From: Blastocatellia bacterium
GTDB taxonomy: Bacteria; Acidobacteriota; Blastocatellia; UBA7656
NCBI GenBank assembly: GCA_035249305.1
Contig: DATFGQ010000034.1
Span: forward strand, 9,168 to 73,167
Direction of reading: 5' to 3'
Length of the DNA: 64,000 bases
The stretch's first letter is position 1, and every line of letters begins with the position of its first letter. This document shows, one piece after another, positions 1 through 42,925 of this stretch. The position numbers and the translations under genes were made by a program. The notes under the pieces are model-generated. The model had not been told where the DNA came from. It saw nothing but the letters and a program-made list of their open reading frames with translations, and did no database searches.

Positions 1-255
1 GTACGCGTTGCTTGCTGACGTGAGATACTTCCCGTTGGCCGCCAAGGATACTAATCCGAGGGAGCGTTTGTTGCAAGCAGTTCGACGATAATCTAATAAT
101 ACTTACCGCACTCGACAACGGGCGCTTGTTTACGACCGCGCGGACGTGGTAGATAGCCGGTTGGCCGTTGAAGCATTGCGGGCTAAAGTATATTCTATGC
201 AGGGTCAGTTCATTATATAAGACGGGTGATTCAGTTGTTGAAATCGAGAGTAAAA

Positions 256-1269
256 ATGAATGCGCGCGTGGCTGTGTTGATTGCGGCCGCTTTCGCGAGC
301 TGGGTCGCGGCGGCCCCCGCGCTCGCGCAAGAGGGCTCGAAGCCTCAAGCGGCGCCGCCGCGGTTGATTTCGGATCTGAAGAGCAAGAAGGCCGACACGC
401 GCCGCGCGGCCGCAACCCAGCTCGGGCAGATTCGAGCGCGCGAATCGGTCCGCCCGCTGATCGCCGCGCTGGCGGACGCCGACGTAACGGTGCGCGAAGC
501 GGCGGCCTTCGCCCTTGGGCAGATAGCCGACGCCACGGCCTCGCTCCCCCTGACGCGCGCGCTGGCCGATAAGGACACGGAGGTGCGCGCGTCGGCGGCC
601 TTCGCCTTAGGCATGATCGGCGAGCGCAAATCGCTCCAGGCGCTTTCGGACGCTCTGGCCGACGAAGAGCCGGCCGTGCGCGCGGCGGCGGCCACTGCGC
701 TCGGGCTGATGCAAGACCCCCAGGCCGTGGACGAGCTGGTGGCGATGCTCAACGACCCGTCTTTCGACGTGAGGTATGACGCCGTCTGGGCGCTCGGTTA
801 CATAGGCGAGCCCGACGCGGTCGAACCGCTGAACACAGCGCTGTTGAACTTAAGCTCGCTTCAGGTGAGCGACACGTTGCGCGAAGCATTTCGTCAGAAC
901 GCCCAGAACGCGCTCGAAAGTTTGAGGACGACCGAATACGTCGAGCGCACGCGCCAGCGCATAGTCGAGCCGCCCGACCGCCCGAATGAGCCTAAGACGT
1001 ACTCGATGGCGATCACCCCCGCGACGATTCAGGAATCGGTCCAGCCTGCCCCGACCGAGCGGGCGGACCGCGCGAAGGTCCAGGGCGCGGTCACCCTCAA
1101 AGTTCTTGTGGGGGCCGACGGGCGGGCGGTCCGGGCTTACGTTACGCGCCGCCTGGGCCACGGGCTCGACCACAGGGCCGCAGAAGCTATCTTGCAGTAT
1201 CGATTCATCCCGGCCAAGCAGGGCGGACTGCCGCAGACGACATGGATGAATATCGATGTGAAGTTTTAG
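256..1269 (+). CDS. Secreted HEAT-repeat protein with C-terminal TonB-like domain
   Basis: ORF 226..1269. The internal ATG at 256 gives a classic signal peptide (MNARVAVLIAAAFASWVAAAPALAQ). At least five tandem HEAT/PBS-lyase-like units follow (D.D..VR..AA.ALGQIG pattern), then a Pro-rich linker. The C-terminal VQGAVTLKVLVGADGRA...AEAILQYRFIPAKQGG resembles a TonB C-terminal domain. Confidence 0.7.
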   Translation: MNARVAVLIAAAFASWVAAAPALAQEGSKPQAAPPRLISDLKSKKADTRRAAATQLGQIRARESVRPLIAALADADVTVREAAAFALGQIADATASLPLTRALADKDTEVRASAAFALGMIGERKSLQALSDALADEEPAVRAAAATALGLMQDPQAVDELVAMLNDPSFDVRYDAVWALGYIGEPDAVEPLNTALLNLSSLQVSDTLREAFRQNAQNALESLRTTEYVERTRQRIVEPPDRPNEPKTYSMAITPATIQESVQPAPTERADRAKVQGAVTLKVLVGADGRAVRAYVTRRLGHGLDHRAAEAILQYRFIPAKQGGLPQTTWMNIDVKF

Positions 1270-1332: not shown

Positions 1333-2202
1333 ATGCCAAGGACAGTGAAGTGCGGATTGATCCAGGCGTCGAACGCCTGTTCGATCGACGAGCCTATCGA
1401 GAAGATCAAGCAGGCCAACATAGAGAAGAATATTCGATTCATCGAAGAGGCGGCCCGGCAGGGCGTCCAGATCATCTGCATGCAGGAGGTCTTCACCACG
1501 CCTTACTTCTGCGCGGAGCAGGACAAGCGGTGGTACGAGGCCGTCGAGCCGATACCCGACGGCCCGACCGTGCGCCTGATGCAAGAGGTCGCGCGCCAGC
1601 ACGGGATGGTCATCATCGTGCCCATCTACGAAGAAGAGATCACGGGCGTCTATTACAACACGGCCGCCGTCATCGACGCCGACGGCAAATACCTCGGCAA
1701 GTACCGCAAGAACCACATACCGCACACTGCGCCGGGCTTCTGGGAGAAGTTCTACTTCAAGCCGGGGAACCTCGGCTACCCCGCCTTCGACACGGCCTTC
1801 GCGCGCATAGGCGTCTACATCTGCTACGACCGCCACTTCCCGGAAGGCGCGCGCGCTCTCGGGCTGGCCGGCGCAGAGATAGTCTTCAACCCTTCGGCGA
1901 CGGTGGCGGGGCTGAGCGAATACCTCTGGGAGCTTGAGCAGCCCGCGCACGCCGTAGCCAACGGGTATTTCGTCGGCGCGATAAACCGCGTGGGCCACGA
2001 ACAGCCGTGGGACATAGGCGAGTTTTACGGGAAGAGTTATTTCTGCAACCCGCGCGGCAAGATCATCTCTCAGGCGTCGCGCGACTCGGACGAGCTGGTC
2101 GTGGCCGACCTCGACCTGGAGCAGATACGCGAGGTGCGCAACGTCTGGCAATTCTTCCGCGACCGCAGGCCCGAAACTTACGAACCGCTTGTAAAGGAAT
2201 AG
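1333..2202 (+). CDS. Carbon-nitrogen hydrolase (nitrilase superfamily; beta-ureidopropionase / N-carbamoyl-amine amidase-like)
   Basis: 289 aa. The Glu-Lys-Cys triad contexts are visible (IICMQE, YRKNHIP, VYICYDRHFPE). GGAG lies 8 nt upstream of the ATG. Confidence 0.85.
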   Translation: MPRTVKCGLIQASNACSIDEPIEKIKQANIEKNIRFIEEAARQGVQIICMQEVFTTPYFCAEQDKRWYEAVEPIPDGPTVRLMQEVARQHGMVIIVPIYEEEITGVYYNTAAVIDADGKYLGKYRKNHIPHTAPGFWEKFYFKPGNLGYPAFDTAFARIGVYICYDRHFPEGARALGLAGAEIVFNPSATVAGLSEYLWELEQPAHAVANGYFVGAINRVGHEQPWDIGEFYGKSYFCNPRGKIISQASRDSDELVVADLDLEQIREVRNVWQFFRDRRPETYEPLVKE

Positions 2203-4091: not shown

Positions 4092-5060
4092 CTATAGCCT
4101 TCTCGCCGCGGCCAGGAATCGCTCTGCTTCGGCTTTCATGAATGGACCGAAATTCGGGCGGTTCTCTTTCGCGCGCGCAAGCACGCGGCGGCAAGTCTCG
4201 TTCAGCTTCGCGCGGTTCTTGAGCCCCTGGTATATCCTCATCATGTAACGCGCGAAAGTCTGATTGTCGGGATACCTTTCGTAAAGCTTGCGCGCGACGG
4301 GCTCGGCCAGATCGAAAAGATTCTCTTTGAACGTGTATATCTCGACTAAGGCGAGCTGCGCGTCGACGCGCGTGAGCGGCGCGCGCTCGGCGGCCGTCTT
4401 CAAATACTGCAAGCCCTTTTCGCGGTCGCCGATCGGGAGCGATTTCGCCCCGAGCACGGCCGTTGCGAGCCGGCCCAGCGAAGTGTCTGTCAGCAACCCG
4501 ACCTGGTAATAAATATTCCCCGCCGCGAAATAGGCGTCCGCGTAATCCGGGGTGAGCTTCATAAGCTCGTCAAAGTTGTTCTGCGCCGCGCGCGCCGCCC
4601 GCGCCGCCGGTATGGCGTGATTCTGGTACAGGCTCAAGCGCGACCTCAGAGCGTAGGCCGAGCCGAGATAGTAGAACGCCTCTATCTCGTCGGCCTTAGA
4701 TTTCGCCGCGCGCGCGCGAATCAATTCTGCTTTCTTGATCGCCGACGCGAGGAACGCTTCAATCGCGCTGTCGTGATCGCGAACGCCCTGGTCGAGCTTC
4801 GCCGCGTCGACGTAGGACTTCCACACGAGCGCCACCGCGTTGTAAAAATCGCCCGCGGGCGAAGTCGCGTGATCCTGCGAGAGCTTATCGAAACGGCGCG
4901 CGGCTTCCGCGTAGTTGCCCTGGAAGACCAACTCCAACCCTTCGCTGATCTCTTTGGTTTGAGCCTGCGCCGACGGGCCAGACGCGGCGATGAGAAAAAT
5001 GGCGGCGCAAAAAACTGCATATTTGCTTGGCCGTTGCGCGTACTTGATTATGAGCTTCAT
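4092..5060 (-). CDS. Hypothetical secreted all-helical (TPR-like) protein
   Basis: 322 aa. Signal peptide AVFCAAIFLIAASGPSAQAQ. The sequence is helical and Ala/Leu/Tyr-rich (YYLGSAYA, YFAAGNIYYQ). No catalytic motif recognised. Confidence 0.55.
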   Translation of the reverse strand: MKLIIKYAQRPSKYAVFCAAIFLIAASGPSAQAQTKEISEGLELVFQGNYAEAARRFDKLSQDHATSPAGDFYNAVALVWKSYVDAAKLDQGVRDHDSAIEAFLASAIKKAELIRARAAKSKADEIEAFYYLGSAYALRSRLSLYQNHAIPAARAARAAQNNFDELMKLTPDYADAYFAAGNIYYQVGLLTDTSLGRLATAVLGAKSLPIGDREKGLQYLKTAAERAPLTRVDAQLALVEIYTFKENLFDLAEPVARKLYERYPDNQTFARYMMRIYQGLKNRAKLNETCRRVLARAKENRPNFGPFMKAEAERFLAAARRL

Positions 5061-5094: not shown

Positions 5095-6627
5095 ATGAAA
5101 AGATTCATCACGCCCTTGATATTACTTATCGTTGCCATCCTGGCGCAAACGTCATTCGCCGCCGACAGCGCTAACAAGATCATAGACCGCTACAAGAAGG
5201 CTTCGGGCGGGGGCGCGATCAAGCGCGTCAAAAGCACTTCGATGTCCGGGACGGTGAAGGGGGCCGACGGCGCAGAGGGCCGCTTCGTCTACAGAGTGGC
5301 CGGGCCGGATCGCTTGAGAACCGACATCGACGTGGAAGGCTTCAAGGTGAGCGAGTGTTACAACGGCAAGTCCGCCTGGCGTATGGACGGGCGTGGCCTC
5401 AGGACCCTGCTCGGCGCGGAAGCTAAACGGCTGCGCCTGGAAGCCCTCGTCGCGAACAGCCGCCTGCAAGAGCTCTCGCGCAACCGCATAATCGCCGAGC
5501 CTCCCTCGAAGGCGACGGTCGAAGGGCGCGAGGCGAACGCCATCGAGCTGTCGAAAGACGACGCGCGCGTGAAGATATTCTTCGACGCAAAGACCAACCT
5601 GCCCGTCAAGCAGGAGCGGGAGAGGGCCGAGGGGCTGGAAGAGATTTTTTATGGCGATTACCGCGCCGTCGACGGCGTGATGGAGCCCTTCTCTATCAGG
5701 ATCAAGAACGGCGCGGGAGAACTGACCGTCGCGCTGGATCGCGTCGCGCACAACGCTTCGGTCGACGATACGGCGTTCCGCCACCCGCAGGTGGAAGGCG
5801 CGCGCCCGCTGCCCGACCTCGAAACATTATTCAAAGCCGTGATCGCGAATCAGGAAAAGGTGGAAGAGATGCGCGAGCGGTACAGTTTCCGCGCCTCTGA
5901 GACCGAGCGCAAGCTCGAAAAAGACGGCCGCGTCAAAGAGACAGAGACTAAGGTCTACGACGTGACGCCGGTCGCGGGCTCGTTCGTCGAGCGGCTGATC
6001 AGCGTCAACGGCAAAGAGCTTACGCCGGCCGAGCGCGAGAAGGAGGACCGCCGCGTCGAGAAAGATGTCGAAGAGGCGCTCAAGCGGCGCGAGAAGCGGT
6101 TGAAGAAAGAGGCGCAGGCGCGCGAGCGCGGCAAGAAAGAAGAGGAGGAGGACGACGACATCACCATCCTCGATTTCCTGCGCATCAGCGAAGTGACTTC
6201 CGTGAGGCGCGAGATCTTTCGCGGCCATGAAGTGATCGCTTTCGACTTCGAGCCGCGCAAGGGATTCAAGCCTAAGAACCGCGCCGAGACGATCGTCAGC
6301 AAGCTCGCCGGCACGACATGGGTCGACGAAAACGCCCGCCAGATCGTTCGGCTCGAAGCGCGCCTTACGAACTCTTTCAAGATGGGCGGCGGGCTGCTGG
6401 CGTCTATATCGCCGTCGTCGGCGTTTGCCTTCGAGCAGGAGAAGGTCGGCGACGAATTGTGGCTCCCTTCTTACGGCGAAGCGAACATATCGGCCAGGAT
6501 AATGTTGTTCGCGAAATTCAACCGGAGCATGGAGCGCCGCTACAGCGACTATAAGAAATACCAGATCGACAGCGACTACGAGTTGGCGAAGCCTAAAGAG
6601 AATACGAAGCCCGACAGCCAGCCTTAA
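5095..6627 (+). CDS. Hypothetical secreted protein with a central highly charged K/E/R-rich segment
   Basis: ORF from 4990. The ATG at 5095 is preceded by AAGAGG and gives the signal peptide MKRFITPLILLIVAILAQTSFA. A charged block is present (EKEDRRVEKDVEEALKRREKRLKKEAQARERGKKEEEEDDD). It is divergent from 4092..5060. Confidence 0.6.
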   Translation: MKRFITPLILLIVAILAQTSFAADSANKIIDRYKKASGGGAIKRVKSTSMSGTVKGADGAEGRFVYRVAGPDRLRTDIDVEGFKVSECYNGKSAWRMDGRGLRTLLGAEAKRLRLEALVANSRLQELSRNRIIAEPPSKATVEGREANAIELSKDDARVKIFFDAKTNLPVKQERERAEGLEEIFYGDYRAVDGVMEPFSIRIKNGAGELTVALDRVAHNASVDDTAFRHPQVEGARPLPDLETLFKAVIANQEKVEEMRERYSFRASETERKLEKDGRVKETETKVYDVTPVAGSFVERLISVNGKELTPAEREKEDRRVEKDVEEALKRREKRLKKEAQARERGKKEEEEDDDITILDFLRISEVTSVRREIFRGHEVIAFDFEPRKGFKPKNRAETIVSKLAGTTWVDENARQIVRLEARLTNSFKMGGGLLASISPSSAFAFEQEKVGDELWLPSYGEANISARIMLFAKFNRSMERRYSDYKKYQIDSDYELAKPKENTKPDSQP

Positions 6628-15666: not shown

Positions 15667-16018
15667 AAGCCCTGATAGGGTATGATTCTATAGCCAAGCA
15701 TCGCTCCCGCTCACTTAAGCCCCGTAGGGGCGCTATTCAACAGCCAGGGGCAACGCCCCTGGAAACTGATTGTTAATAATGAGAAGCCCTGATAGGGCGC
15801 GATAAGAGTATCGCCCTTTCAGGGCTTTGTCTTGTATGCGTGCGTAACCCGGCGCGTTGCGCCGGGCTATTGAATCACGCCCCTACGGGGCTTTCGGCTA
15901 TTGAATCGTCGCCCCTACGGGGCTTATTGAATTACGCCTCTTCGAGGCTCGCGGGCAGGGCTATTGAATCGCCGCCCCCGCGGGGCTTATTAAGTCTTAT
16001 AGCTCCGGGGCTTTCAGA
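15667..16018. repeat. Family B composite tetraloop-hairpin repeat (copy B2)
   Basis: It contains the same core as B1 and B3. In addition it has four to five tandem 28-35-nt units of CTATTGAAT plus a small hairpin (GCCCC-TACG-GGGGC, GCCTC-TTCG-GAGGC, GCCCC-CGC-GGGGC). It sits between convergent genes. Confidence 0.85.
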
Positions 16019-23053: not shown

Positions 23054-23686
23054 ATGCTCGCTCAAGGGTCTTACACATCTGCGTCCGTCGAAATGCCCGT
23101 GTCCCAGGGTACTGACAGGCTTTACAACCTTGCCACCGCACTTGATGAAATAAACGAAGGCGCAGTCTTCATGAACTGCGAAGGACAGCTCGTCTGGCAC
23201 AACCGCGCATTCGACCGGCTGCTGGTCGAGAACCGCGAGGGCCACCATCTGGTCGCCGCAGTCATAGAGCTCGCGGGCGACTTCTACCAGGAACTCTACA
23301 CGGCATCGGACCGCGCGGCGGGCGACGAGCAGGGCCTTGTTTCGCTCGCTCGCGACGTTACCGTAGGCCGGATCGACCACGAGATTCATTGCACGTTGAT
23401 GCCCAAGGGGATGCTGGGGCTTGACAGCTACGTGCTCTGCCTCATAAAGCGCTCGGCGTCGCGGTGGTCGAGCTACGAAGAACACTTGCGCCAGACCTGG
23501 GGGCTTACGGAGCGCGAGGCGCAGGTGGCCGTCGAGTGCCTGCGCGGCAAAAAGAACCTCGAGATAGCCGAGCGGCTCAGGATAAGCGTAGAGACGGTCA
23601 ATAAGCACCTGGACAAGGTCTATCAAAAGGCCGGGGTGCGGGGGCGGTCCGAGCTGGCAAGCCGCCTGCTCGACAGCGGCATCTGA
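23054..23686 (+). CDS. LuxR-family transcriptional regulator with an N-terminal PAS-like sensor (EpsA-like)
   Basis: 210 aa. The C-terminal HTH is LTEREAQVAVECLRGKKNLEIAERLRISVETVNKHLDKVYQKAGV. The N-terminal GAVFMNCEGQLVWHNRAFDRLL is PAS-like. Confidence 0.8.
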   Translation: MLAQGSYTSASVEMPVSQGTDRLYNLATALDEINEGAVFMNCEGQLVWHNRAFDRLLVENREGHHLVAAVIELAGDFYQELYTASDRAAGDEQGLVSLARDVTVGRIDHEIHCTLMPKGMLGLDSYVLCLIKRSASRWSSYEEHLRQTWGLTEREAQVAVECLRGKKNLEIAERLRISVETVNKHLDKVYQKAGVRGRSELASRLLDSGI

Positions 23687-23727: not shown

Positions 23728-23997
23728 ATGCGAATCGAGAAAAGTTCATCAACAGTCTTCACGCCTCTCGACGATGGGAGGGCCGTCTTGTTGAACCTCG
23801 ACACACTCTTCTACTACAGGTTGAATCGCACGGGCGCGGCGCTGTGGAAGCAGATCGAAGAGAGCAAAACGATCATGCTCGACGACCTTGTGCGCGGCGC
23901 CTGCGAGCGGTTCGACGTCGACGAAGAGGGCGCTCGCCGCAGCGTCAGCTCTTTTGTGGAGCGGCTCGAAGAGTACAAGATGGTTCACATCGTTTGA
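23728..23997 (+). CDS. PqqD-family (RiPP-recognition-element-like) small protein
   Basis: 89 aa. The segment VLLNLDTLFYYRLNRTGAALWKQIEESKTIMLDDLVRGACERFDVDEEGARRSVSSFVERLEEYKMV matches the PqqD/RRE pattern (beta-strands then LN.T...W, then a three-helix bundle). Confidence 0.7.
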   Translation: MRIEKSSSTVFTPLDDGRAVLLNLDTLFYYRLNRTGAALWKQIEESKTIMLDDLVRGACERFDVDEEGARRSVSSFVERLEEYKMVHIV

Positions 23998-24110
23998 GCG
24001 CGGGCAGACCATCTGGTCGCCTGAAGCCGCCGAGGCGGCCTTCGGCTTTGTAGTCTTCAGCCTCGGGCTATGCAGCTTTCAAATCTCGCCATCTAACTTC
24101 CGCTGTTTGA

Positions 24111-24125
24111 GTGACACCGTTTGTC
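24111..24125. promoter_or_regulatory. Inverted repeat TGACA-N5-TGTCA, candidate enhancer-binding-protein site
   Basis: It lies about 100 bp upstream of the sigma54 -24 element, the usual distance for a bEBP UAS. There is no other support. Confidence 0.2.
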
Positions 24126-24220
24126 ATCGCGATTTCCGATATTTGTTAACCCTCTTGGGTAGCGCCGCGCGCGGCTTACGGATTTTAAGGAGTTAAGACT
24201 ACCCGAAAGGGCTATGGTAG

Positions 24221-24236
24221 CTGGCACGCACGTTGC
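24221..24236 (+). promoter_or_regulatory. Sigma54 (RpoN) -24/-12 promoter
   Basis: TGGCACGCACGTTGCT is a perfect match to the consensus TGGCACG-N4-TTGCW. Confidence 0.65.
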
Positions 24237-24498
24237 TCAAGTGAAGAAACGCAGCCTGAGAAGGCTGTCTGGCGGAAGGGGTCAAGGGGGCGATGCCTTC
24301 TGCTTCTTAACTGAGAGAAGCGACAGAACTAAATTGGAAATGCCACAAAGGTCGAGGTCATGGGGGCGACGTCGACTTTTGTGGCTCGCTTCATTGCGCA
24401 GTATTTTCATAGAAAGTTCACCCTCTATTAAGGCAGTTGCAACGGATCGCGTTTATCATTCTTCTAACAGAGTGGTTGCAAAGGAGGGATTGGTAAGA

Positions 24499-24705
24499 AT
24501 GTCAGCAGTACTTCCAAGCGTGGAATCATTCGTCACAGGGCAAAAGGTATTAACGGGGTTCGGGCCGGGGGTGGTATCGGCCATCAGCCGAGTAGATTCG
24601 ATAATCTACGTGACGCTCTCAAACGAGCCCACGGGGCTCTACATCATGCGCCCCGAGCAAGTCGAGCCTTTTGACGGCGAGCAGGCGTCTGACGATAACC
24701 CGTAA
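24499..24705 (+). CDS. Hypothetical 68-aa protein
   Basis: A strong RBS, AAGGAGGG, lies 10 nt upstream of the ATG at 24499. This is the C-terminal part of track ORF 24214..24705. The product is MSAVLPSVESFVTGQKVLTGFGPGVVSAISRVDSIIYVTLSNEPTGLYIMRPEQVEPFDGEQASDDNP. Confidence 0.45.
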   Translation: MSAVLPSVESFVTGQKVLTGFGPGVVSAISRVDSIIYVTLSNEPTGLYIMRPEQVEPFDGEQASDDNP

Positions 24706-24744
24706 ATTGCTCCCGACAGATTAGCCCTCCCGGCGGAGGCTGTT

Positions 24745-24876
24745 ATGGAGTTTATGACTATCACGACAATGTCGGAAGGTCGTCGCTACATTGCGATCTA
24801 CCGTAAATGGTTCAACGAAAAGCTGGGCGCGTGGGAGCTTGAGATGGTGCCCGGCACGCTACGCTGGATCAATTGA
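24745..24876 (+). CDS. Hypothetical 43-aa small ORF (below the ORF-track cutoff)
   Basis: GGAGG lies 5 nt upstream of the ATG. My own translation is MEFMTITTMSEGRRYIAIYRKWFNEKLGAWELEMVPGTLRWIN. Confidence 0.3.
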   Translation: MEFMTITTMSEGRRYIAIYRKWFNEKLGAWELEMVPGTLRWIN

Positions 24877-24972
24877 CGGCCCCGTTTGAAAAGCTAATGA
24901 AATAAAACGAAGCACTATCGGCCCGCCGGTCTTCTTTTATCGCCGCAAGCCTTGCCGCACTAAAACTGCCTT

Positions 24973-25167
24973 TTACTCGTATATCTCGAAAAAAGCATCA
25001 ATGCTTTCAAGCAGTTGCCGCTTTATCTGTTCCGGCGTGCCTTCAATAGTGTGCAGAGTCACCTGGCGCGTCTGCCCGTCTTCCATCAGGATCTGCCCAT
25101 GTTCGACCGCTGCAAGCTCTTCGCCCGAAACCAGCCTCAGGCCATAAACCAACGTCTTCTTGTCCAT
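24973..25167 (-). CDS. Hypothetical 64-aa protein
   Basis: A track ORF with plausible codon usage and only a weak RBS (AAGAAG). No recognisable motif. Confidence 0.35.
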   Translation of the reverse strand: MDKKTLVYGLRLVSGEELAAVEHGQILMEDGQTRQVTLHTIEGTPEQIKRQLLESIDAFFEIYE

Positions 25168-25361: not shown

Positions 25362-25493
25362 GTAAACAACACCGCTTTATGTTCCTGCCATAAAGCGGTT
25401 CTGTTTTGGCGGTGCGCTGGGGGAAGGAACATTCAGAAAGGGGGCTACTGAATGTTCAAGGGGGCTTGTCGATTAGACGACCTAGCGCACCGC
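25362..25493 (-). ncRNA. Candidate about 130-nt sRNA with three single-stranded CCCCC motifs
   Basis: It is bounded by a minus-strand promoter (25497-25525) and an intrinsic terminator (25371-25399 plus GUUGUUU). The hand fold gives a closing stem 25484-25493 / 25409-25418, a 10-bp hairpin GAACAUUCAG/CUGAAUGUUC and a small GUCG/CGAC hairpin. There is no ORF with an RBS. Confidence 0.5.
25371..25407. terminator. Bidirectional intrinsic terminator hairpin
   Basis: ACCGCTTTAT - 9-nt loop - ATAAAGCGGT (10-bp stem). The plus-strand tail is TCTGTTTT and the minus-strand tail is GTTGTTT. Confidence 0.6.
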
Positions 25494-25525: not shown

Positions 25526-25786
25526 GAACTTCTTTTATTCGTGCGTTTACCTCCACAAGCGATCTTTTTCAGGCATATCTTTGGGATAATCAACAGTTTG
25601 CGGCCATGATTTAAATATCTGGCCTCAGATTGACAACGCTTTCGGCCGTGTGCTAAAAGCATCTGCGACAAGTGCAAATTGTGTTTAACCGGCAGCATTC
25701 TTTTCTCTTTAAGAAGTCAGTATTGATCCGAGCAGTCTTAGCGCGCGCTATAATTATATTCATGCGCGCCTCGTTTGGGGTTTACA

Positions 25787-26806
25787 ATGGCAGACGAAAG
25801 CAATGATAAAGTAGACAAGCCGACGACCGAGAGCACTGAAGAGTCGAAAGAGAGTCCGAAGACTACCGGGGCCGACGTTCCTGAAAAAGCTCAGCCGCTT
25901 CCGCCCGAAGCCGGCTCCGTCGACCCTGCCGCCGAGATCGCGGCCAAGACCAAGGATACGCTGCCCGCCGGAGAGAAACCGAAGACCGAAGCCAAGGCCG
26001 AAGAGGCGCTGCCGGGCGTAGAGAAGCCGTCAAAGACTCCTGCCGTTGAAGGGGCGAGCGAAAAGGGCGAGCCTGCCACGCCTGAAAAGGTTGCGCCAAC
26101 ACCTCCGAAAGAAGGCGCCGCTTCCGTAAAGCCCGCGCCGCCGCGCGCTCCCGCCGCTGAAAAGGCGGCGGGTGAAAAGCCCGCTCCGCCGAAAGCGGCT
26201 CCGGCGGCCGGTCACAAGCCTGCGCCGCCGGCTAAGAAGGGGCCGATCGTCACCGTAGATATAACCGGCGATGCTCTGATCGATAAGATCAAACAGCGTT
26301 TCGGCGAGGCCGTCACCGAAGCCGTCGCCACGTTCGGCCAGCAGATCATCCGCGTCAAGAAAGAGTCGTTCGTCGAACTGTGCCTCTATTTGAAAGAGGA
26401 CGAGGACACGCTTTTCGATATGTGCAGCGACCTGACGGCGCTGCACTGGCCGGAGCGCTCGGGTCAGGAGTTCGATGTCGTAGTGATGCTCTACTCCGTG
26501 CCGAAGAATCGCCGCCTGCGCATCAAGGTCGCCATAGCCGACGGCGAGACCTGCCCGTCTGTTACGCACATCTGGGAAGGCGCGAATTGGATGGAGCGCG
26601 AGGCGTATGATATGTTTGGGATTCGGTTCGAAGGCCACCCCGACCTCAGGCGAATACTGCTTCCGCCCGACTGGCCGGGATACCCCTTGCGCAAAGAGTA
26701 CCCTATCGAGTATCGCGATAACGAGTGGACCGACAAGCATCTTCAGTATCGCGAAGTCGATTACGACACCAGCTTGATCGACGTGAAGTACGCGGAGAGA
26801 AGGTAG
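25787..26806 (+). CDS. nuoC: NADH-quinone oxidoreductase subunit C with an N-terminal low-complexity extension of about 150 aa
   Basis: Track ORF from 25775 (TTG); the ATG at 25787 gives MADESND. Residues 1 to about 152 are Pro/Ala/Lys/Glu-rich. The C-terminal half has NuoC motifs ([47 protein letters not shown]). Confidence 0.85.
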
Positions 26807-37309: not shown

Positions 37310-37600
37310 AAAGCCCTGAAAGGGCTTGATTCAATAGCCAGGGGCACCGCCCCTGGAAACGGATTGATAATAATGAAAAGCCCTGAAAGGGCGATATGAC
37401 TATCGCGCCCTTTCAGGGCTTAATCTTGTATGACGCGTCACCCGGCGCGTTGCGCCGGGCTATTGAATCACGCCCCTACGGGGCTTTCGGCTATTGAATA
37501 TCGCCTCTTCGAGGCTTTCTATTGAATCATGCTCCTGCGGGGCTTATTGAATGCCGCCTCTTCGAGGCTTTCTATTGAAGCGTGTCTCCTTTGGGATTCT
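37310..37600. repeat. Family B composite tetraloop-hairpin repeat (copy B3)
   Basis: It has the same core as B2 in the same orientation. Four CTATTGAAT-hairpin units follow (GCCCC-TACG-GGGGC, GCCTC-TTCG-GAGGC twice, GCTCC-TGC-GGGGC). It sits between convergent genes. Confidence 0.85.
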
Positions 37601-39805: not shown

Positions 39806-41008
39806 GTGAGTGAAGACGGACAGGTAACCATACTCTGCCTCGCCAGCTACTACAAGGGCGAAGAGTTCCTGCGCGAATCGAAACGCCAGGGCTGCCGCGT
39901 GCTGCTGGTCACGGTCGAGTCTCTGGCCGAAGCCGACTGGCCGCGCGAAGTGATAGACGACATCTTCTACTTGCCGGACCTCTACAACCGCGAAGACGTT
40001 ATCAAAGGCATAAGCTACCTTGCGCGCACGCAGGCCATCGACCGCATAGTGCCGCTCGACGACTACGACGTGGAGACGGCGGCCGTGTTGCGCGAGCACC
40101 TGCGCATACCGGGGATGGGCGACACGACCGCGCGCCACTTCCGAGACAAGCTCGCCATGCGCGTGAAGGCTAGCGACGAGCAGATACTCGTGCCGGAATT
40201 CGTCCACGTCCTGAATTACGACCGCATACGCGACTACCTCGAACGCGTCCCGCCGCCTTGGGTCTTAAAGCCGAGGGCGGAGGCGTCGGCCATAGGGATC
40301 AAGAAGGCCGAGAGCGCCGACCAGGTCTGGCGGCTGCTGGAAGAGCTCGGCGACCGGCGGTCGTTTTACCTCCTGGAACAGTTCATCGCGGGTGACATCT
40401 ATCACATAGATTCCGTGGTGAGCGAGCGCGAAGTCGTCTTCGCCATCCCTCACAAATACGGGAAGCCGCCCATGGACGTAGCGCACGGCGGCGGCATATT
40501 CACTACGCGGAGGATAGAGGCGCATTCGGCGGACGCGCAGGCGCTTGAGCTGCTCAACCGCGAGCTGATAACGACGCTGGGATTGGTGCGCGGGGTGACT
40601 CACACGGAGTTCATAAAGGGGCGCGACGGGCGGTTCTATTTCCTGGAGACGGCTTCGCGCGTGGGCGGCGCGAACATCGCCGAAGTCGTCGAGGCGGCCA
40701 CAGGTGTAAACCTCTGGCGCGAGTGGGCGAGGATAGAGATAGGCCGCGGCGAGCATAATTATGAATTGCCGCCGCACCGGGACGACTACTCCGGGATAAT
40801 CATATCGCTCGCGCGCCAGGAGTGTCCCGACACTTCCGCCTATGACGACAAGGAAGTGGTGTGGCGCTTAAACAAGCGCTACCACGCGGGGCTGATCGTC
40901 GCGTCGCCGGAGGCCGCGACGGTCGAGCGACTGCTCGAAGAGTACACGCGCCGGTTTTTGAAAGACTTCTACGCCACGGCCCCGCTGCCCGAAAAGCCGA
41001 CCTCATAG
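39806..41008 (+). CDS. ATP-grasp domain protein (carboxylate-amine ligase type)
   Basis: The GTG start is preceded by AGGAG at a 6-nt spacing. ATP-grasp elements are present ([48 protein letters not shown]). Confidence 0.7.
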
Positions 41009-41092: not shown

Positions 41093-42925
41093 ATGAACGG
41101 ATTATATCTCGGCACACGCGCATTACTATTCTCGATCATGCTCTTGCTGATCCTGTCAGGCGCGGCTCACGCGCAGGGCACGGCCTTCTCGTATCAGGGC
41201 CGCTTGACCGACTCAGGCAACCCGGCCGACGGTCTGTTCGACATGCAGTTCAAGCTGTTCGACACGGCGACTGTGGGGGCGGGCTCTCAGCAAGGCGCTA
41301 CGGTCACAAACTCCACGGTCCAGGTGACGAACGGAGTCTTTACGATCGAGCTCGATTTCGGGGCGGCGATCTTTACGGGCGCGGCCCGCTTCCTTGAGAT
41401 AGGCATACGGCCCGCGGGCAGCCCCGCGCCTTACACTCTGCTCAGCCCGCGCCAGCCGCTGACGAGCGCGCCGTATGCTATCAGGAGCAACGCGGCCGCG
41501 ACGGCCGACGCCTTGAGCGTTGCGTGCGTTGGCTGCGTGACGAGCGGCCAGATACAGAGCGTGGCGGGCGGTGCGGTGACGGGCGCGATACCTGTCGCGA
41601 GCATCCCCGCGGGGAGCGCGAACTACATTCAAAACTCTACGGCGCAGCAGGCCGCGGCGAATTTCAACATAAGCGGAGATGGCGCGGTCGGCGGGGCGCT
41701 GTCAGGTGGTGTCGTCAACGCTGGGACGCAGTACAACATAGCGGGGCAGCGCGTATTAAGCGTGTCAGGGCCGTTTTCCATCGGCCCGACTGTCTTTGCA
41801 TCGTCGAACACATTTCTGGGAGACCGCGCGGGTATTAATACAACGCCGGGCGATACGCTCGACTCGAACGACGGTAAGTTCAACACGTTTGTGGGAGCAG
41901 GCGCCGGCGCGGCTAACGTATCGGGCCGCGACAACTCATTCTTTGGCGAGCGGGCGGGCGCGGCTAACATCTTCGGCTCCCGTAACACATTCTTCGGAAG
42001 GCTTGCCGGTCAGTCTAATACAACGGCCAGCGATAATTCCTTGTTTGGTGCTAGCGCCGGCTCAAGTAACACCGGAAACCTCAACTCATTCTTTGGCAGC
42101 GATGCCGGCGCAAGTAACACAACCGGCAACAGCAATTCGTTCTTTGGCGCTGGCGCCGGCTCGGCAAGTACGACTGGCTTCGGGAACTCGTTTTTTGGGA
42201 AGGAAGCGGGCGTGGCGAACCTGACGGGCAGCGCCAACGCGTTTTTCGGGAGATTGGCCGGCGATAACAACATCACCGGCAGCAACAACACGATCATAGG
42301 CTTCAGTGCGGATGTGGGGGCAAACAATCTGAACAACGCCGCCGCCATAGGCTCAGGCGCTCTTGTGGCGCAAAGCAACGCGATGGTGCTCGGCTCCATA
42401 AACGGAGTCAACGGCGCTACGGCCACGGTCAGCGTAGGCATAGGGACTACGACGCCGTCGGACCGGCTGCACGTGGTAGGAGACATACGAATAGGCACGG
42501 GGACTACGGGGTGCGTCAAGGACGCCGACGGCACGATACTGACTGGCAGTTGCTCTTCGGACGCGAGGCTAAAGCATGCGATCACGCCTTTCCCGGCGTT
42601 GCTCGACAGGTTGGTGCAGTTGCGCCCCGTCCATTTCTTCTGGAGGGCGAAGGAGTTTCCGGAAAGGGTCTTCGGCGACAGGCAGTCATACGGGCTGATC
42701 GCGCAGGAGGTCGAGCGGGTAATGCCGGAGCTTGTGACGGACGACGAGCATGGGTACAAGGTTGTGAACTACTCGAAGCTGCCGCTGATGAGCGTGCAGG
42801 CCATCAAGGAGCTTAAGATTGAGAACGACAACCTGAAAGAGTCGCTGCGCCGACAGCAGGAAGAGATCGCGGCATTGAAAAGAGTCGTCTGTCAGATGCG
42901 GCCTGACGCCGAGATGTGCAGATAA
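41093..42925 (+). CDS. Secreted tail-fibre-like repeat protein with a C-terminal S74 intramolecular-chaperone autoprocessing domain
   Basis: 610 aa with a signal peptide. About 11 tandem 14-15-aa units of the NSFFG..AG..NTTG type are present. The C-terminal SSDARLKHAITPF...GLIAQEVERVMPELV...YSKL plus a coiled coil matches the endosialidase-chaperone (Peptidase_S74) pattern. Confidence 0.7.
   Translation: MNGLYLGTRALLFSIMLLLILSGAAHAQGTAFSYQGRLTDSGNPADGLFDMQFKLFDTATVGAGSQQGATVTNSTVQVTNGVFTIELDFGAAIFTGAARFLEIGIRPAGSPAPYTLLSPRQPLTSAPYAIRSNAAATADALSVACVGCVTSGQIQSVAGGAVTGAIPVASIPAGSANYIQNSTAQQAAANFNISGDGAVGGALSGGVVNAGTQYNIAGQRVLSVSGPFSIGPTVFASSNTFLGDRAGINTTPGDTLDSNDGKFNTFVGAGAGAANVSGRDNSFFGERAGAANIFGSRNTFFGRLAGQSNTTASDNSLFGASAGSSNTGNLNSFFGSDAGASNTTGNSNSFFGAGAGSASTTGFGNSFFGKEAGVANLTGSANAFFGRLAGDNNITGSNNTIIGFSADVGANNLNNAAAIGSGALVAQSNAMVLGSINGVNGATATVSVGIGTTTPSDRLHVVGDIRIGTGTTGCVKDADGTILTGSCSSDARLKHAITPFPALLDRLVQLRPVHFFWRAKEFPERVFGDRQSYGLIAQEVERVMPELVTDDEHGYKVVNYSKLPLMSVQAIKELKIENDNLKESLRRQQEEIAALKRVVCQMRPDAEMCR

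Follow-up and report, generated by a model that had tools for sequence, protein, structure and literature searches.

A 64-kb window (the whole stretch of 64,000 nt analysed here) from a Blastocatellia bacterium contains a sigma54 unit that we interpret, with a probability of about 0.7, as an activator-gated bicistronic operon for two small proteins, whose leader RNA presents twin G-rich loops to a partner and which is conserved in the class Blastocatellia. Sequence and comparison establish the promoter, its activator sites, the fold of the RNA and the coding status of both open reading frames (orf68 and orf43), and structure models indicate a fold class for both proteins; coordinates are listed in Table 1. 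Few groups of bacteria are as abundant in soil as the Acidobacteria, yet to our knowledge almost nothing is known about their gene regulation. The locus offers a complete, testable Blastocatellia sigma54 control region comprising activator sites, a possible bending site and a promoter.

Table 1 Features of the sigma54 unit and its upstream neighbours, in order of position in the window.
Feature	Position	Strand	Basis or remark
LuxR-type (GerE HTH) regulator gene, 210 aa	23054-23686	+	PF00196 GerE, E = 1.6e-13
PqqD-like (RRE-type peptide chaperone) gene, 89 aa	23728-23997	+	PF05402, E = 1.6e-16
Terminator-like hairpin and T-run	24029-24052	+	Consensus scan; stem of 7 bp, 5 of them GC, then TTTGTAGTCT
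Activator site 1 (predicted), dyad GTGAC-N4-TTTGTCAT	24111-24127	.	Includes TGACA-N5-TGTCA
Activator site 2 (predicted), TATTTGTTAACC-N5-GGGTAGC	24140-24163	.	Second dyad
A/T-rich block TTTTAAnGAnTTA(A/G), then ACCCnAAnGG	24183-24211	.	Column conservation; between activator sites and promoter
sigma54 -24/-12 promoter TGGCACGCACGTTGCT	24222-24237	+	GG 24223-24224, GC 24235-24236
Predicted transcription start	24248	+	12 nt past the -12 GC, from usual sigma54 geometry
Hairpin H0	24251-24268	+	4/6 pairs with compensatory changes; 88% of cells paired
Hairpin H1	24270-24305	+	11/11 pairs with compensatory changes; 91% of cells paired
H1 loop, 8 nt, AAGGGGGC	24284-24291	+	G-run and C invariant, 30 sequences
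Purine-rich linker ACUGAGAGAAGCGACAGAAC, near-invariant	24310-24329	+	Sequence conservation
Helix P-L, 5' strand GAAGCGA	24317-24323	+	Inside purine-rich linker
Hairpin H2	24342-24385	+	11/17 pairs with compensatory changes; 93-96% of cells paired
H2 loop, 8 nt, AUGGGGGC	24360-24367	+	
Helix P-L, 3' strand UCGCUUC	24386-24392	+	Directly 3' of H2
Core 3' leader	24406-24459	+	Invariant columns
-10-like TATCAT	24454-24459	+	End of core; TAnnnT conserved
orf68 Shine-Dalgarno AAGGAGGG	24481-24488	+	Read from sequence
orf68, 68 aa	24499-24705	+	Coding, homologues
orf43 Shine-Dalgarno GGAGG	24735-24739	+	Read from sequence
orf43, 43 aa	24745-24876	+	Arg-, Tyr- and Trp-rich
Weak terminator-like hairpin and T-run	24917-24940	+	Consensus scan; between orf43 and convergent 64-aa gene

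The promoter is the single exact match to TGGCACG-N4-TTGCW on both strands of the window, where 0.03 matches were expected from shuffles and only 2 of 100 shuffles contained any. The same site agrees with TGGCAC-N5-TTGCW, and its GG and GC are exactly one helical turn apart. A preliminary description of this DNA had placed a sigma54 promoter at 24221-24236; the promoter is real, unique as an exact consensus and conserved, and its position is corrected by 1 nt to 24222-24237. YGGCAY-N5-TTGC was kept in 42 of the 43 related loci with enough upstream DNA (46 sources scanned, 42 positive; three of the four negatives had <65 nt of upstream sequence), and L046 carries the variant CGGTAC-N5-TTGCT. 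Across loci the GG, the GC and their spacing are fixed, and the spacer is constant in length and variable in sequence. From this arrangement we infer sigma54 dependence and a transcript start at about 24248. The promoter and its activator sites persist in L023/L024 and L041, where the hairpin module of the leader was independently lost, which suggests that the promoter serves the ORFs. Literature searches on the locus itself, on Blastocatellia with sigma54 and on Chloracidobacterium with RpoN found nothing relevant.

Two dyads precede the promoter. TGACA-N5-TGTCA at 24112-24126 is the lone match in the window (0.00 expected), and the site 1 dyad that includes it is likewise unique there (0.00-0.22 expected); each locus has exactly one such dyad, 89-112 nt (in most cases 111) ahead of the -24 element. 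Its uniqueness and its conservation across loci support the earlier suggestion that this inverted repeat, about 100 nt upstream, is a possible activator site. Site 2 lies about two helical turns past site 1, is conserved in an alignment of 23 loci, and in L020 forms a near-perfect palindrome (TTGTTAACCC/GGGTAACAA). Both dyads, predicted from sequence conservation, keep a fixed distance to the promoter across all loci and agree with the expectation of enhancer-binding sites at about -80 to -150. The A/T-rich block downstream of them may be an IHF-like bending site, a reading based solely on its resemblance to WATCAA-N4-TTR.

This layout resembles that of promoters of the glnAp2/NtrC and nifH/NifA type, with tandem dyad activator sites and an IHF bend; common to both are the -24 GG and -12 GC at canonical spacing, the two dyads ~85-135 bp upstream and the A/T-rich block before the promoter. 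The glnA gene also has a partner sigma70-type promoter, and the locus here has a possible one. However, in contrast to glnAp2 and nifH, no activator is encoded near the unit, and the promoter drives a structured leader and microproteins rather than enzymes or transporters. An activator gene close to the unit was rejected because none was present in the window or in the flanks (~10 kb) examined: no GAFTGA motif was found in the 64-kb window or in 45 locus flanks, and no Sigma54_activat domain was found among the 20 large window ORFs tested. We know of no NtrC, NifA or other bEBP site that matches GTGAC-N4-TTTGTCAT or TGTTAACC-N5-GGGTA.

The leader of ~251 nt (~24248 to 24498) has a fold energy of -96.1 kcal/mol (z = -4.17 relative to dinucleotide shuffles) and comprises three hairpins, H0, H1 and H2, together with a long-range helix, P-L. 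The hairpin consensus was derived with RNAalifold from 36 leaders. In the consensus fold, 91.8% of cells were paired, compared with 34-53% when partners were slid, and compensatory changes were present in 26 of 34 pairs, compared with 9-16 in the slid controls; the observed pairing and covariation values were reached by none of 500 shuffles. The pairs of H2 fall in two runs, of 4 and 13. Helix P-L was 91% paired (35-48% when slid), with changes mostly from G-C to G-U. Fold energy and comparative covariation thus both bear out the structured leader of ~250 nt that had been described before. H1 and H2 share the loop A-N-GGGGG-C in 30 sequences. The covariance model R1 detected one copy of the hairpin module per locus (99-165 bits) and none elsewhere in 310 kb, on which ground a repeated or mobile element was rejected. 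A search of the region with the Rfam 15 covariance models gave no match at gathering score, and the only match at E <= 10 was a noise match to snoRNA sR10. The hairpin module is a new structured RNA motif with strong covariation and without an Rfam family.

The module is absent from L023/L024, L041 and L046 and degenerate in the L012 group, suggesting that its function is dispensable; at least two lineages lost it while retaining the promoter. In L023, the module deletion is flanked by a GCGCAG direct repeat. Several candidate functions of the leader were rejected. H2 does not qualify as an intrinsic terminator or attenuator, since scans found no + strand terminator between the promoter and the 24917 hairpin and the bases that follow H2 on its 3' side pair within P-L. 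A pyrimidine block upstream of the orf68 RBS pairs with it in the minimum free energy structures of 22 of 39 leaders, but no better than in shuffles (pairing probability of 0.725 compared with 0.703 in dinucleotide shuffles; Wilcoxon p = 0.40). The same block followed by UAAC bears a vague likeness to a BoxA/Nus site, but its sequence is not conserved. A CsrA/RsmA-titrating RNA was also rejected, because the A-N-GGGGG-C loops (30 sequences) lack the GGA of the CsrA rule.

Repeated identical loops are known from other regulatory RNAs. Qrr and GlmY/GlmZ are sigma54-dependent RNAs of this kind, and the leader here likewise stems from a sigma54 promoter; CsrB and RsmZ are titrating RNAs with repeated loop motifs, and the recurring loop here suggests repeated docking of one partner. 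However, unlike all of these, the RNA here belongs to the leader of an mRNA, lacks its own terminator and has no Rfam match. ANTAR targets and the guanidine-II riboswitch also place a pair of similar hairpins, with conserved loops that are identical, in a 5' leader. In ANTAR targets the loops are of 6 nt with A1 and G4, the linker is short and a terminator overlaps, and the guanidine-II riboswitch has ACGR tetraloops, whereas the module described here has 8-nt loops, a ~36-nt conserved linker and no terminator.

The two ORFs of 68 and 43 aa, with their RBSs, lie where the preliminary description had put them. A GGAGG-like site precedes the orf68 start codon in nearly all loci, and GGAGG or GGGA precedes orf43 in the other loci. 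We found 37 homologue clusters for orf68 (55-100% identity) and 78 for orf43 (all at least 72% identical). The median dN/dS was 0.17 for orf68 and 0.08 for orf43. A Chloracidobacterium MAG (L014) is among the carriers of the unit. Every element of the unit recurs in related Blastocatellia loci, and in relatives that keep the promoter neither ORF is broken by a frameshift or stop (31 orf68 and 36 orf43 orthologues), consistent with the earlier proposal that both are expressed as small proteins. Residues 1-56 of orf68 are conserved, followed by a short, variable, acidic C-terminal tail, and the net charge is about -6. Conservation of orf43 extends over all 43 residues, 17 of which are invariant, and matches that of NuoC, a subunit of the respiratory complex encoded nearby. 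From these comparisons, both small ORFs are coding and under strong purifying selection, and they represent two new microprotein families.

The AlphaFold2 model of the orf68 product (pLDDT 82.5) is a five-strand beta-barrel. The top Foldseek matches were the PHF1 Tudor domain, the UvrD C-terminal domain and the NusG KOW domain (TM 0.56-0.68, E >= 0.007, identity 15-25%), and the product models, at the fold level only, as a small Tudor/SH3/KOW-like barrel with an acidic tail. As modelled, it would share the five-strand fold class with stand-alone Tudor/SH3-like barrels (UvrD/PcrA C-terminal Tudor, CarD/Mfd RID, NusG KOW and YorP). However, it differs from them in its acidic tail and in belonging to none of their sequence families, and the Foldseek E-value is only ~0.007. 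A PDB sequence-profile search with orf68 was empty, and its sole remote sequence relatives are unannotated repeat proteins. The product of orf43 was modelled as a four-strand antiparallel beta sheet (pLDDT 96.5) with a net charge of about +1 and had no significant PDB fold match. Neither product matched Pfam or NCBIfam, in agreement with the earlier remark that neither resembles a recognised protein. A hairpin hiding the orf43 RBS and a C-rich inter-ORF target for the G loops were found only in the closest relatives of the window, and both were rejected.

The LuxR-type regulator gene upstream of the unit is 68-98% identical in related loci. Where a locus has enough sequence, the PqqD-like gene almost always lies directly upstream of the unit, and it does so in L002, L046 and L048; in L009, none was present within the 554 nt upstream examined. 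The PqqD-like gene, the promoter, orf68 and orf43 occur together in three contexts with different flanks (L002, L046 and L048). The LuxR-type gene accompanies them in L046 and L048 and is absent beside the unit in L002. Outside these three loci, shared gene order within a single class could be enough to explain the linkage. Synteny backs the previously suggested link to the adjacent PqqD-like gene, which remains with the unit when the flanks change. The hairpin at 24029-24052 is a putative terminator of the LuxR-PqqD transcript that would insulate the sigma54 unit, and the weak hairpin at 24917-24940 is the probable end of a transcript of ~690 nt. The unit usually adjoins genes of an EPS locus, encoding chain-length, tyrosine-kinase, ExeA-like ATPase and sugar-transferase proteins, and in L002 and L046 it is present without EPS neighbours. 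Of the EPS/PEP-CTERM connection drawn in the preliminary description, the EPS synteny holds as a common arrangement, but it is not universal and the products are not PEP-CTERM proteins: neither matched the PEP-CTERM models of Pfam and NCBIfam, and the models show each of these short products as a complete all-beta domain without an extra terminal segment of the PEP-CTERM type.

In the bicistronic operon that we favour, an AAA+ activator would bind the two dyad sites ~135 to 85 bp upstream and, probably assisted by a DNA bend at the A/T-rich block, would open the sigma54-RNA polymerase sitting at 24222-24237. The predicted transcript of ~690 nt would begin near 24248 with a leader in two parts, an accessory module of ~145 nt (H0, H1, H2 and the long-range helix) and a core of ~100 nt that is always retained. 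H1 and H2 would display their identical 8-nt loops, A-N-GGGGG-C, next to the invariant purine-rich strand. Two small cytoplasmic proteins would then be made from strong RBSs, an acidic 68-aa Tudor/SH3-like barrel followed by a 43-aa four-strand beta sheet. The twin loops may let a single trans-acting partner dock at two sites, whether an RNA-binding protein that acts as a dimer or an RNA rich in C and U, and this partner would tune only the sigma54-made transcript, through its stability or its translation. The encoded proteins are not favoured as autoregulators, because orf68 is acidic (about -6) and orf43 has a charge of only about +1. Both proteins may act as folded adaptors or regulators with the neighbouring LuxR-type regulator and PqqD-like chaperone in the regulatory region of an EPS locus. 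Should the activator and the partner of the loops be identified, the motif could serve as the marker of a regulon linked to exopolysaccharide production, and hence to soil aggregation and biofilm life.

It is more speculative, and in our judgment unlikely, that the sigma54 leader and both microproteins join the LuxR-type regulator and the PqqD-like chaperone in one undescribed signalling module of the Blastocatellia. If they did, the 145-nt RNA with its twin G loops would represent a novel class of riboregulator, serving as a docking platform or ligand sensor, and the beta-proteins handled by PqqD would be effectors that switch exopolysaccharide or biofilm behaviour.

The core 3' leader is retained in leaders without the hairpin module. 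Its invariant motifs recur at a period of ~11 nt, namely TTCA (24406), TT (24417), TAA (24429) and GCAAC (24439), and RNAalifold predicted no consensus RNA structure for it. The core ends in the conserved TAnnnT, which is located 39 nt ahead of the orf68 ATG and, in 34 of 39 unique leaders, 25-26 nt past the first TAA(C). TAnnnT is a possible second, proximal promoter, from which the ORFs would be expressed in part without the leader. The preliminary description had the sigma54 promoter driving only the leader and the two ORFs; the leader and the ORFs stand, and "only" may be too strong given this -10-like element.

These features bear on whether the leader has a function separate from the ORFs. 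The sigma54 promoter might mainly yield an sRNA of ~150 nt (H0-H1-H2), stand-alone or derived from the 5'-UTR, whose twin G-rich loops and purine-rich strand would act on targets in trans, and the ORFs would be expressed mostly from an activator-dependent, sigma70-type proximal promoter with TATCAT (24454-24459) as its -10. TAnnnT does keep a constant spacing after the first TAAC, its inner positions vary as in real -10 elements (TAGAAT, TATCAT, TATAAT and TACAAT), the ~11-nt recurrence of the invariant, unstructured motifs ahead of it is reminiscent of phased binding sites on DNA, and the single-stranded parts of the module are more strongly conserved than the proteins, which fits a trans-acting RNA. 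However, TATCAT has no canonical -35 and the sigma70 scan was empty on the + strand of the core leader, no intrinsic terminator follows H2, whose 3' flank is engaged in helix P-L, and a perfect sigma54 promoter with its activator sites survives in lineages that lost the module, which is hard to explain if the RNA is the main product. We therefore consider such a division of functions unlikely. A ligand-sensing riboswitch that controls the ORFs, with the two hairpins converging around a small molecule in the style of guanidine-II (mini-ykkC), would account for the tandem hairpins with identical invariant loops, for the highly conserved unpaired strand and for the position of the module in a 5' leader. 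It is quite improbable given that no expression platform was found (no terminator, and RBS pairing no better than in shuffles, p = 0.40), that the downstream genes are neither transporters nor enzymes, that the 8-nt G-rich loops are unlike any Rfam riboswitch, and that the module was repeatedly lost.

The neighbouring genes raise two further readings. Both ORF products could be RiPP precursors, which the PqqD-like protein would recognise through its RRE and pass to a modifying enzyme. This idea draws on the stand-alone PqqD/RRE gene (PF05402) directly upstream, linked even when the flanks change, and on the best NCBIfam matches of its product, which are lasso-type PqqD models, although these matches fall below the cut-offs. 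It is very improbable in view of the conservation of orf43 from end to end and the variation of orf68 in its short acidic tail only, and of the folded all-beta models (pLDDT 96.5 and 82.5), which are unlike a leader with a variable or Cys/Ser/Thr-rich core. Furthermore, no radical SAM, cyclase, protease, YcaO or ATP-grasp gene was conserved around L001, L002, L046 and L048. On the same grounds, the "regulated peptides" of the preliminary description are unlikely in the RiPP sense. The other reading bears solely on which activator is at work and can hold together with the favoured operon: the unit may belong to a regulon of the PrsR/PrsK type, with a PrsR orthologue as activator. In Proteobacteria, the PrsR/PrsK sigma54 system controls PEP-CTERM genes beside exopolysaccharide loci, where Haft et al. 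(2006) described a 17-nt motif, in some cases repeated, that ends in TTTACA and lies ~63 nt ahead of a sigma54 motif (PMC1569441). The unit here is similarly found, as a rule, beside EPS-locus genes and in a long intergenic region. It also has a candidate counterpart of the motif, a repeated 17-nt site with a T-rich 3' end ~60-70 nt before the sigma54 motif; the copies end in TTTGTCAT and TTTGTTAAC, the second ~69 nt ahead of the promoter, a likeness judged against the verbal description of the Haft motif. However, that motif was reported only for Proteobacteria, and the unit lies in another phylum, encodes products without a PEP-CTERM domain or a match to any PEP-CTERM model, and has a structured leader of ~250 nt compared with a mean of 71 nt in Haft et al. 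(PMC1569441). The unit persists in L002 and L046 although EPS genes are missing beside it, and neither the window nor the ~10-kb flanks showed a PrsR, PrsK or PrsT gene. A PrsR orthologue is accordingly a doubtful candidate, and the PrsR-type activator invoked in the preliminary description has no counterpart, PrsR-like or with another GAFTGA motif, in the window and flanks examined.

It should be noted that a 163-aa ORF at 24214-24705 spans the leader. We regard it as an artefact, since the leader contains non-triplet indels and RNA covariation and the extension is missing in most relatives. Databases carry N-terminally extended versions that read through the leader, and the unit therefore illustrates the mis-calling of small genes.

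The unit formed by the sigma54 promoter, its activator sites, a leader of ~250 nt and two small ORFs (orf68, 68 aa; orf43, 43 aa) is probably a sigma54 operon whose structured leader acts in cis; its RNA motif and both of its microprotein families are new. Related loci (L numbers) were collected from 20 species-level genomes, 23 metagenomes and six exact look-ups, giving 49 in total. Three Acido-Lenti-1 RNA hits in the window point to Acidobacteria, and the genome matches were all MAGs labelled Blastocatellia or Acidobacteriota, save one labelled Clostridia, which may be a binning error.

The promoter proposed in the preliminary description was borne out, one nucleotide to the right of the position first reported. 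TGGCACG-N4-TTGCW has a single exact match on both strands of the window, and dinucleotide shuffles averaged 0.03. YGGCAY-N5-TTGC was found upstream of orf68 in 42 of 46 sources; three of the other four have less than 65 nt of upstream sequence, and L021 is the only one truly without the motif. The promoter of L046 is a variant, CGGTACGAGTTTTGCT. Across loci the GG, the GC and their spacing are fixed and the five spacer bases are free to vary, just as a sigma54 site should behave, and the comparative evidence argues that the promoter is real. Loci with a full-length leader have 243-331 nt between promoter and orf68, and those with a shortened leader 128-195 nt.

The inverted repeat noticed earlier as a possible activator site was also recovered, unique in the window (0.00 expected). 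Every locus carries a single GTGAC-N4-WTTGTCA, placed upstream of the -24 element by 89-112 nt and in most cases by 111. Furthermore, all loci share a second upstream dyad, TTGTTAACC-N5-GGGTA (a near-perfect palindrome in L020), and an A/T-rich block, TTTTAAnGAnTTA, with ACCCnAAnGG after it. Enhancer-dependent promoters are classically laid out in this way; the A/T-rich block bears only a resemblance to an IHF site. No activator gene was found, with no GAFTGA motif in the window or 45 locus flanks and no Sigma54_activat domain among 20 large window ORFs. The control region, of ordinary sigma54 design, resembles PrsR-dependent PEP-CTERM promoters as judged from the description of their motif rather than its logo; in Proteobacteria, this motif is 17 nt long, ends in TTTACA, is sometimes repeated and precedes the sigma54 motif by ~63 nt (PMC1569441). 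The products of the unit are not PEP-CTERM proteins.

Locations of features in the window and, where a locus is named, in related loci
Feature	Location	Strand	Remark
Acido-Lenti-1 RNA	15718-15762	-	
Acido-Lenti-1 RNA	15848-15892	+	
LuxR-type regulator gene	23054-23686	+	
PqqD-like gene	23728-23997	+	
Terminator-like hairpin	24029-24052		end of LuxR-type/PqqD genes
Inverted repeat	24112-24126		TGACA-N5-TGTCA
sigma54 promoter	24222-24237		TGGCACGCACGTTGCT
Hairpin H0	24251-24268		RNAalifold, 36 leaders
Hairpin H1	24270-24305		loop 24284-24291; RNAalifold, 36 leaders
Linker	24317-24323		GAAGCGA
Hairpin H2	24342-24385		loop 24360-24367; RNAalifold, 36 leaders
Linker partner	24386-24392		UCGCUUC, directly 3' of H2
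TAnnnT of window	24454-24459		TATCAT, 39 nt before ATG
orf68 ribosome-binding site	24481-24488		AAGGAGGG
orf68	24499-24705		
orf43 ribosome-binding site	24735-24739		GGAGG
orf43	24745-24876		
Convergent 64-aa gene	24973-25167	-	after the unit; then nuo operon
11-bp hairpin	25371-25399	both	scores as terminator
NuoC homologue	25775-26806	+	343 aa
Acido-Lenti-1 RNA	37441-37485	+	
ATP-grasp-like ORF	39806-41008	+	
Peptidase_S74 protein	41093-42925	+	610 aa
L023, module missing	1095-1235		
L024, module missing	123-251		
L041, module missing	1404-1555		
L016, without H1	4806-5001		
L002, tandem H2 arm	~5850-5910		

The proposed structured leader held up as well: the stretch between the promoter and orf68 has a predicted folding energy of -96.1 kcal/mol (z = -4.17), and the consensus fold contains three hairpins (H0, H1 and H2), with compensatory changes in 25 of 34 predicted pairs. 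By an independent count, 91.8% of cells were paired, against 34-53% with partners slid by 1-3 columns. Both sides had changed in 26 pairs (9-16 after sliding), and no shuffle out of 500 came up to the observed values. The near-invariant linker GAAGCGA forms a long-range helix with UCGCUUC (91% paired versus 35-48% when slid), in which changes are mostly C to U, keeping a G-U pair. The loops of H1 and H2 are both A-N-GGGGG-C, with the G-run and C invariant in 30 sequences. On covariation the leader is a structured RNA; it had no match in Rfam. In layout, this twin-loop RNA is like CsrB/Rsm decoys, ANTAR targets and the guanidine-II riboswitch, but its loops do not follow the rule by which each of these is defined. 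R1, a covariance model of the module (the hairpins plus the helix; 145 positions, 40 pairs), detected a single copy in each locus, scoring 99-165 bits, and no further one in the 310 kb that the window and flanks add up to; the module is therefore not a repeat element. In L002, the hairpin is followed by three tandem copies of the 3' arm and tail of H2 (TTTTGTGGCTCGATTC).

H0-H2 are cleanly absent from L023 and L024 (whose proteins are 84-90% identical to those of the window) and from L041, of a different clade; the leaders of these loci are 109-132 nt long, and a perfect promoter and the activator sites are kept. The module is degenerate in the L012 group, and the leader of L046 is unrelated. 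The module is accessory: different clades have lost it independently, with promoter and activator sites left in place. Since the promoter survives this loss, it would serve the ORFs and not only the RNA. The L023 deletion is edged by the direct repeat GCGCAG, a pattern that slippage would explain, or possibly an earlier insertion that duplicated its target.

RNAalifold gave no consensus structure for the 3' third of the 36 leaders. This part carries invariant TTCA, TT, TAAC and TAAC at a period of ~11 nt, and TAnnnT (TAGAAT, TATCAT, TATAAT, TACAAT and similar) follows the first TAAC by exactly 25-26 nt in 34 of 39 unique leaders. These motifs resemble a -10 element accompanied by binding sites in phase, a candidate but unproven second promoter; scans found no canonical -35. 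The alternative, that the pyrimidine-rich block in this region hides the ribosome-binding site, did not hold up against shuffles.

Both ORFs were located as first described, and neither shows any stop or frameshift across 31-36 orthologues. Homologues formed 37 clusters for orf68 (55-100% identity) and 78 for orf43 (each at least 72% identical). Variable columns by codon position numbered 35/26/55 in orf68 and 22/13/39 in orf43, with median dN/dS of 0.17 and 0.08, respectively; orf43 is conserved at about the level of NuoC in the same loci. These patterns argue that both ORFs are protein-coding. An in-frame ATG at 24214 stretches orf68 to 163 aa (24214-24705, +) through the promoter and leader, and public protein sets include N-terminally extended calls (P0007, 103 aa; P0008, 116 aa). 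Such calls are mis-annotations, because the leader shows RNA covariation and indels.

Searches of Pfam, NCBIfam and PDB sequences with orf68 and orf43 were empty. A profile run against 1.84 billion representatives returned only 32 proteins, about half of them small and of the same kind; the others were larger, most without a Pfam domain or with unrelated domains only. The large proteins P0129 and P0132 contain at least five tandem copies of GDxVxTxFGxGxV...W.LAN..P.LYL, distantly related to orf68 and covered by no Pfam domain. The orf68 model is a small barrel of five strands that ends in an acidic, disordered tail (pLDDT 82.5), and its best PDB matches (PHF1 Tudor, UvrD C-terminal domain, NusG KOW) would indicate agreement in fold class only, given TM scores of 0.56-0.68 and E-values of at least 0.007. 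The orf43 model, a four-strand antiparallel sheet (pLDDT 96.5), had no meaningful PDB match. A RiPP reading is unlikely and fails on two defining features, as there is neither a modifying enzyme conserved nearby nor a precursor with conserved leader and variable core. The observations in the preliminary description stood, as did most of its interpretation.

Upstream on the minus strand lie exopolysaccharide (EPS) genes for a Wzz-like chain-length factor, an ExeA-like ATPase, a tyrosine-kinase-like ATPase and a sugar transferase, and the order Wzz, LuxR-PqqD, unit, 64-aa gene, nuoC is kept in most loci. PqqD stays beside the promoter, orf68 and orf43 in L002 (no EPS or LuxR-type genes nearby), as do both GerE (LuxR-type) and PqqD in L046 (MiaB-like and VWA genes upstream) and L048 (ferric reductase and molybdoenzyme genes downstream). 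The unit is therefore tied to PqqD and in most cases to the LuxR-type gene as well, with EPS and nuo genes no more than frequent neighbours.

The 64-aa ORF (MDKKTLVYGLRL...) has 59-93% identity in most related loci and no match in Pfam or NCBIfam. It adjoins nuoC in L002, ~4.5 kb from orf43, and so seems to go with the nuo genes and not with the unit. The perfect 11-bp hairpin sits in the A/T-rich spacer of ~600 nt between this gene and nuoC. The NuoC (Complex1_30kDa) homologue has an N-terminal extension of ~170 aa rich in Pro, Ala, Lys and Glu, and relatives align over its full length. The ATP-grasp-like ORF adjoins the Peptidase_S74 (endosialidase chaperone) protein ~15 kb from the unit, outside the conserved neighbourhood. 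Three Acido-Lenti-1 RNAs scored above the Rfam gathering score; the two near 15.8 kb stand back to back on opposite strands, and those at 15848 and 37441 have identical alignments despite a separation of 21.6 kb.
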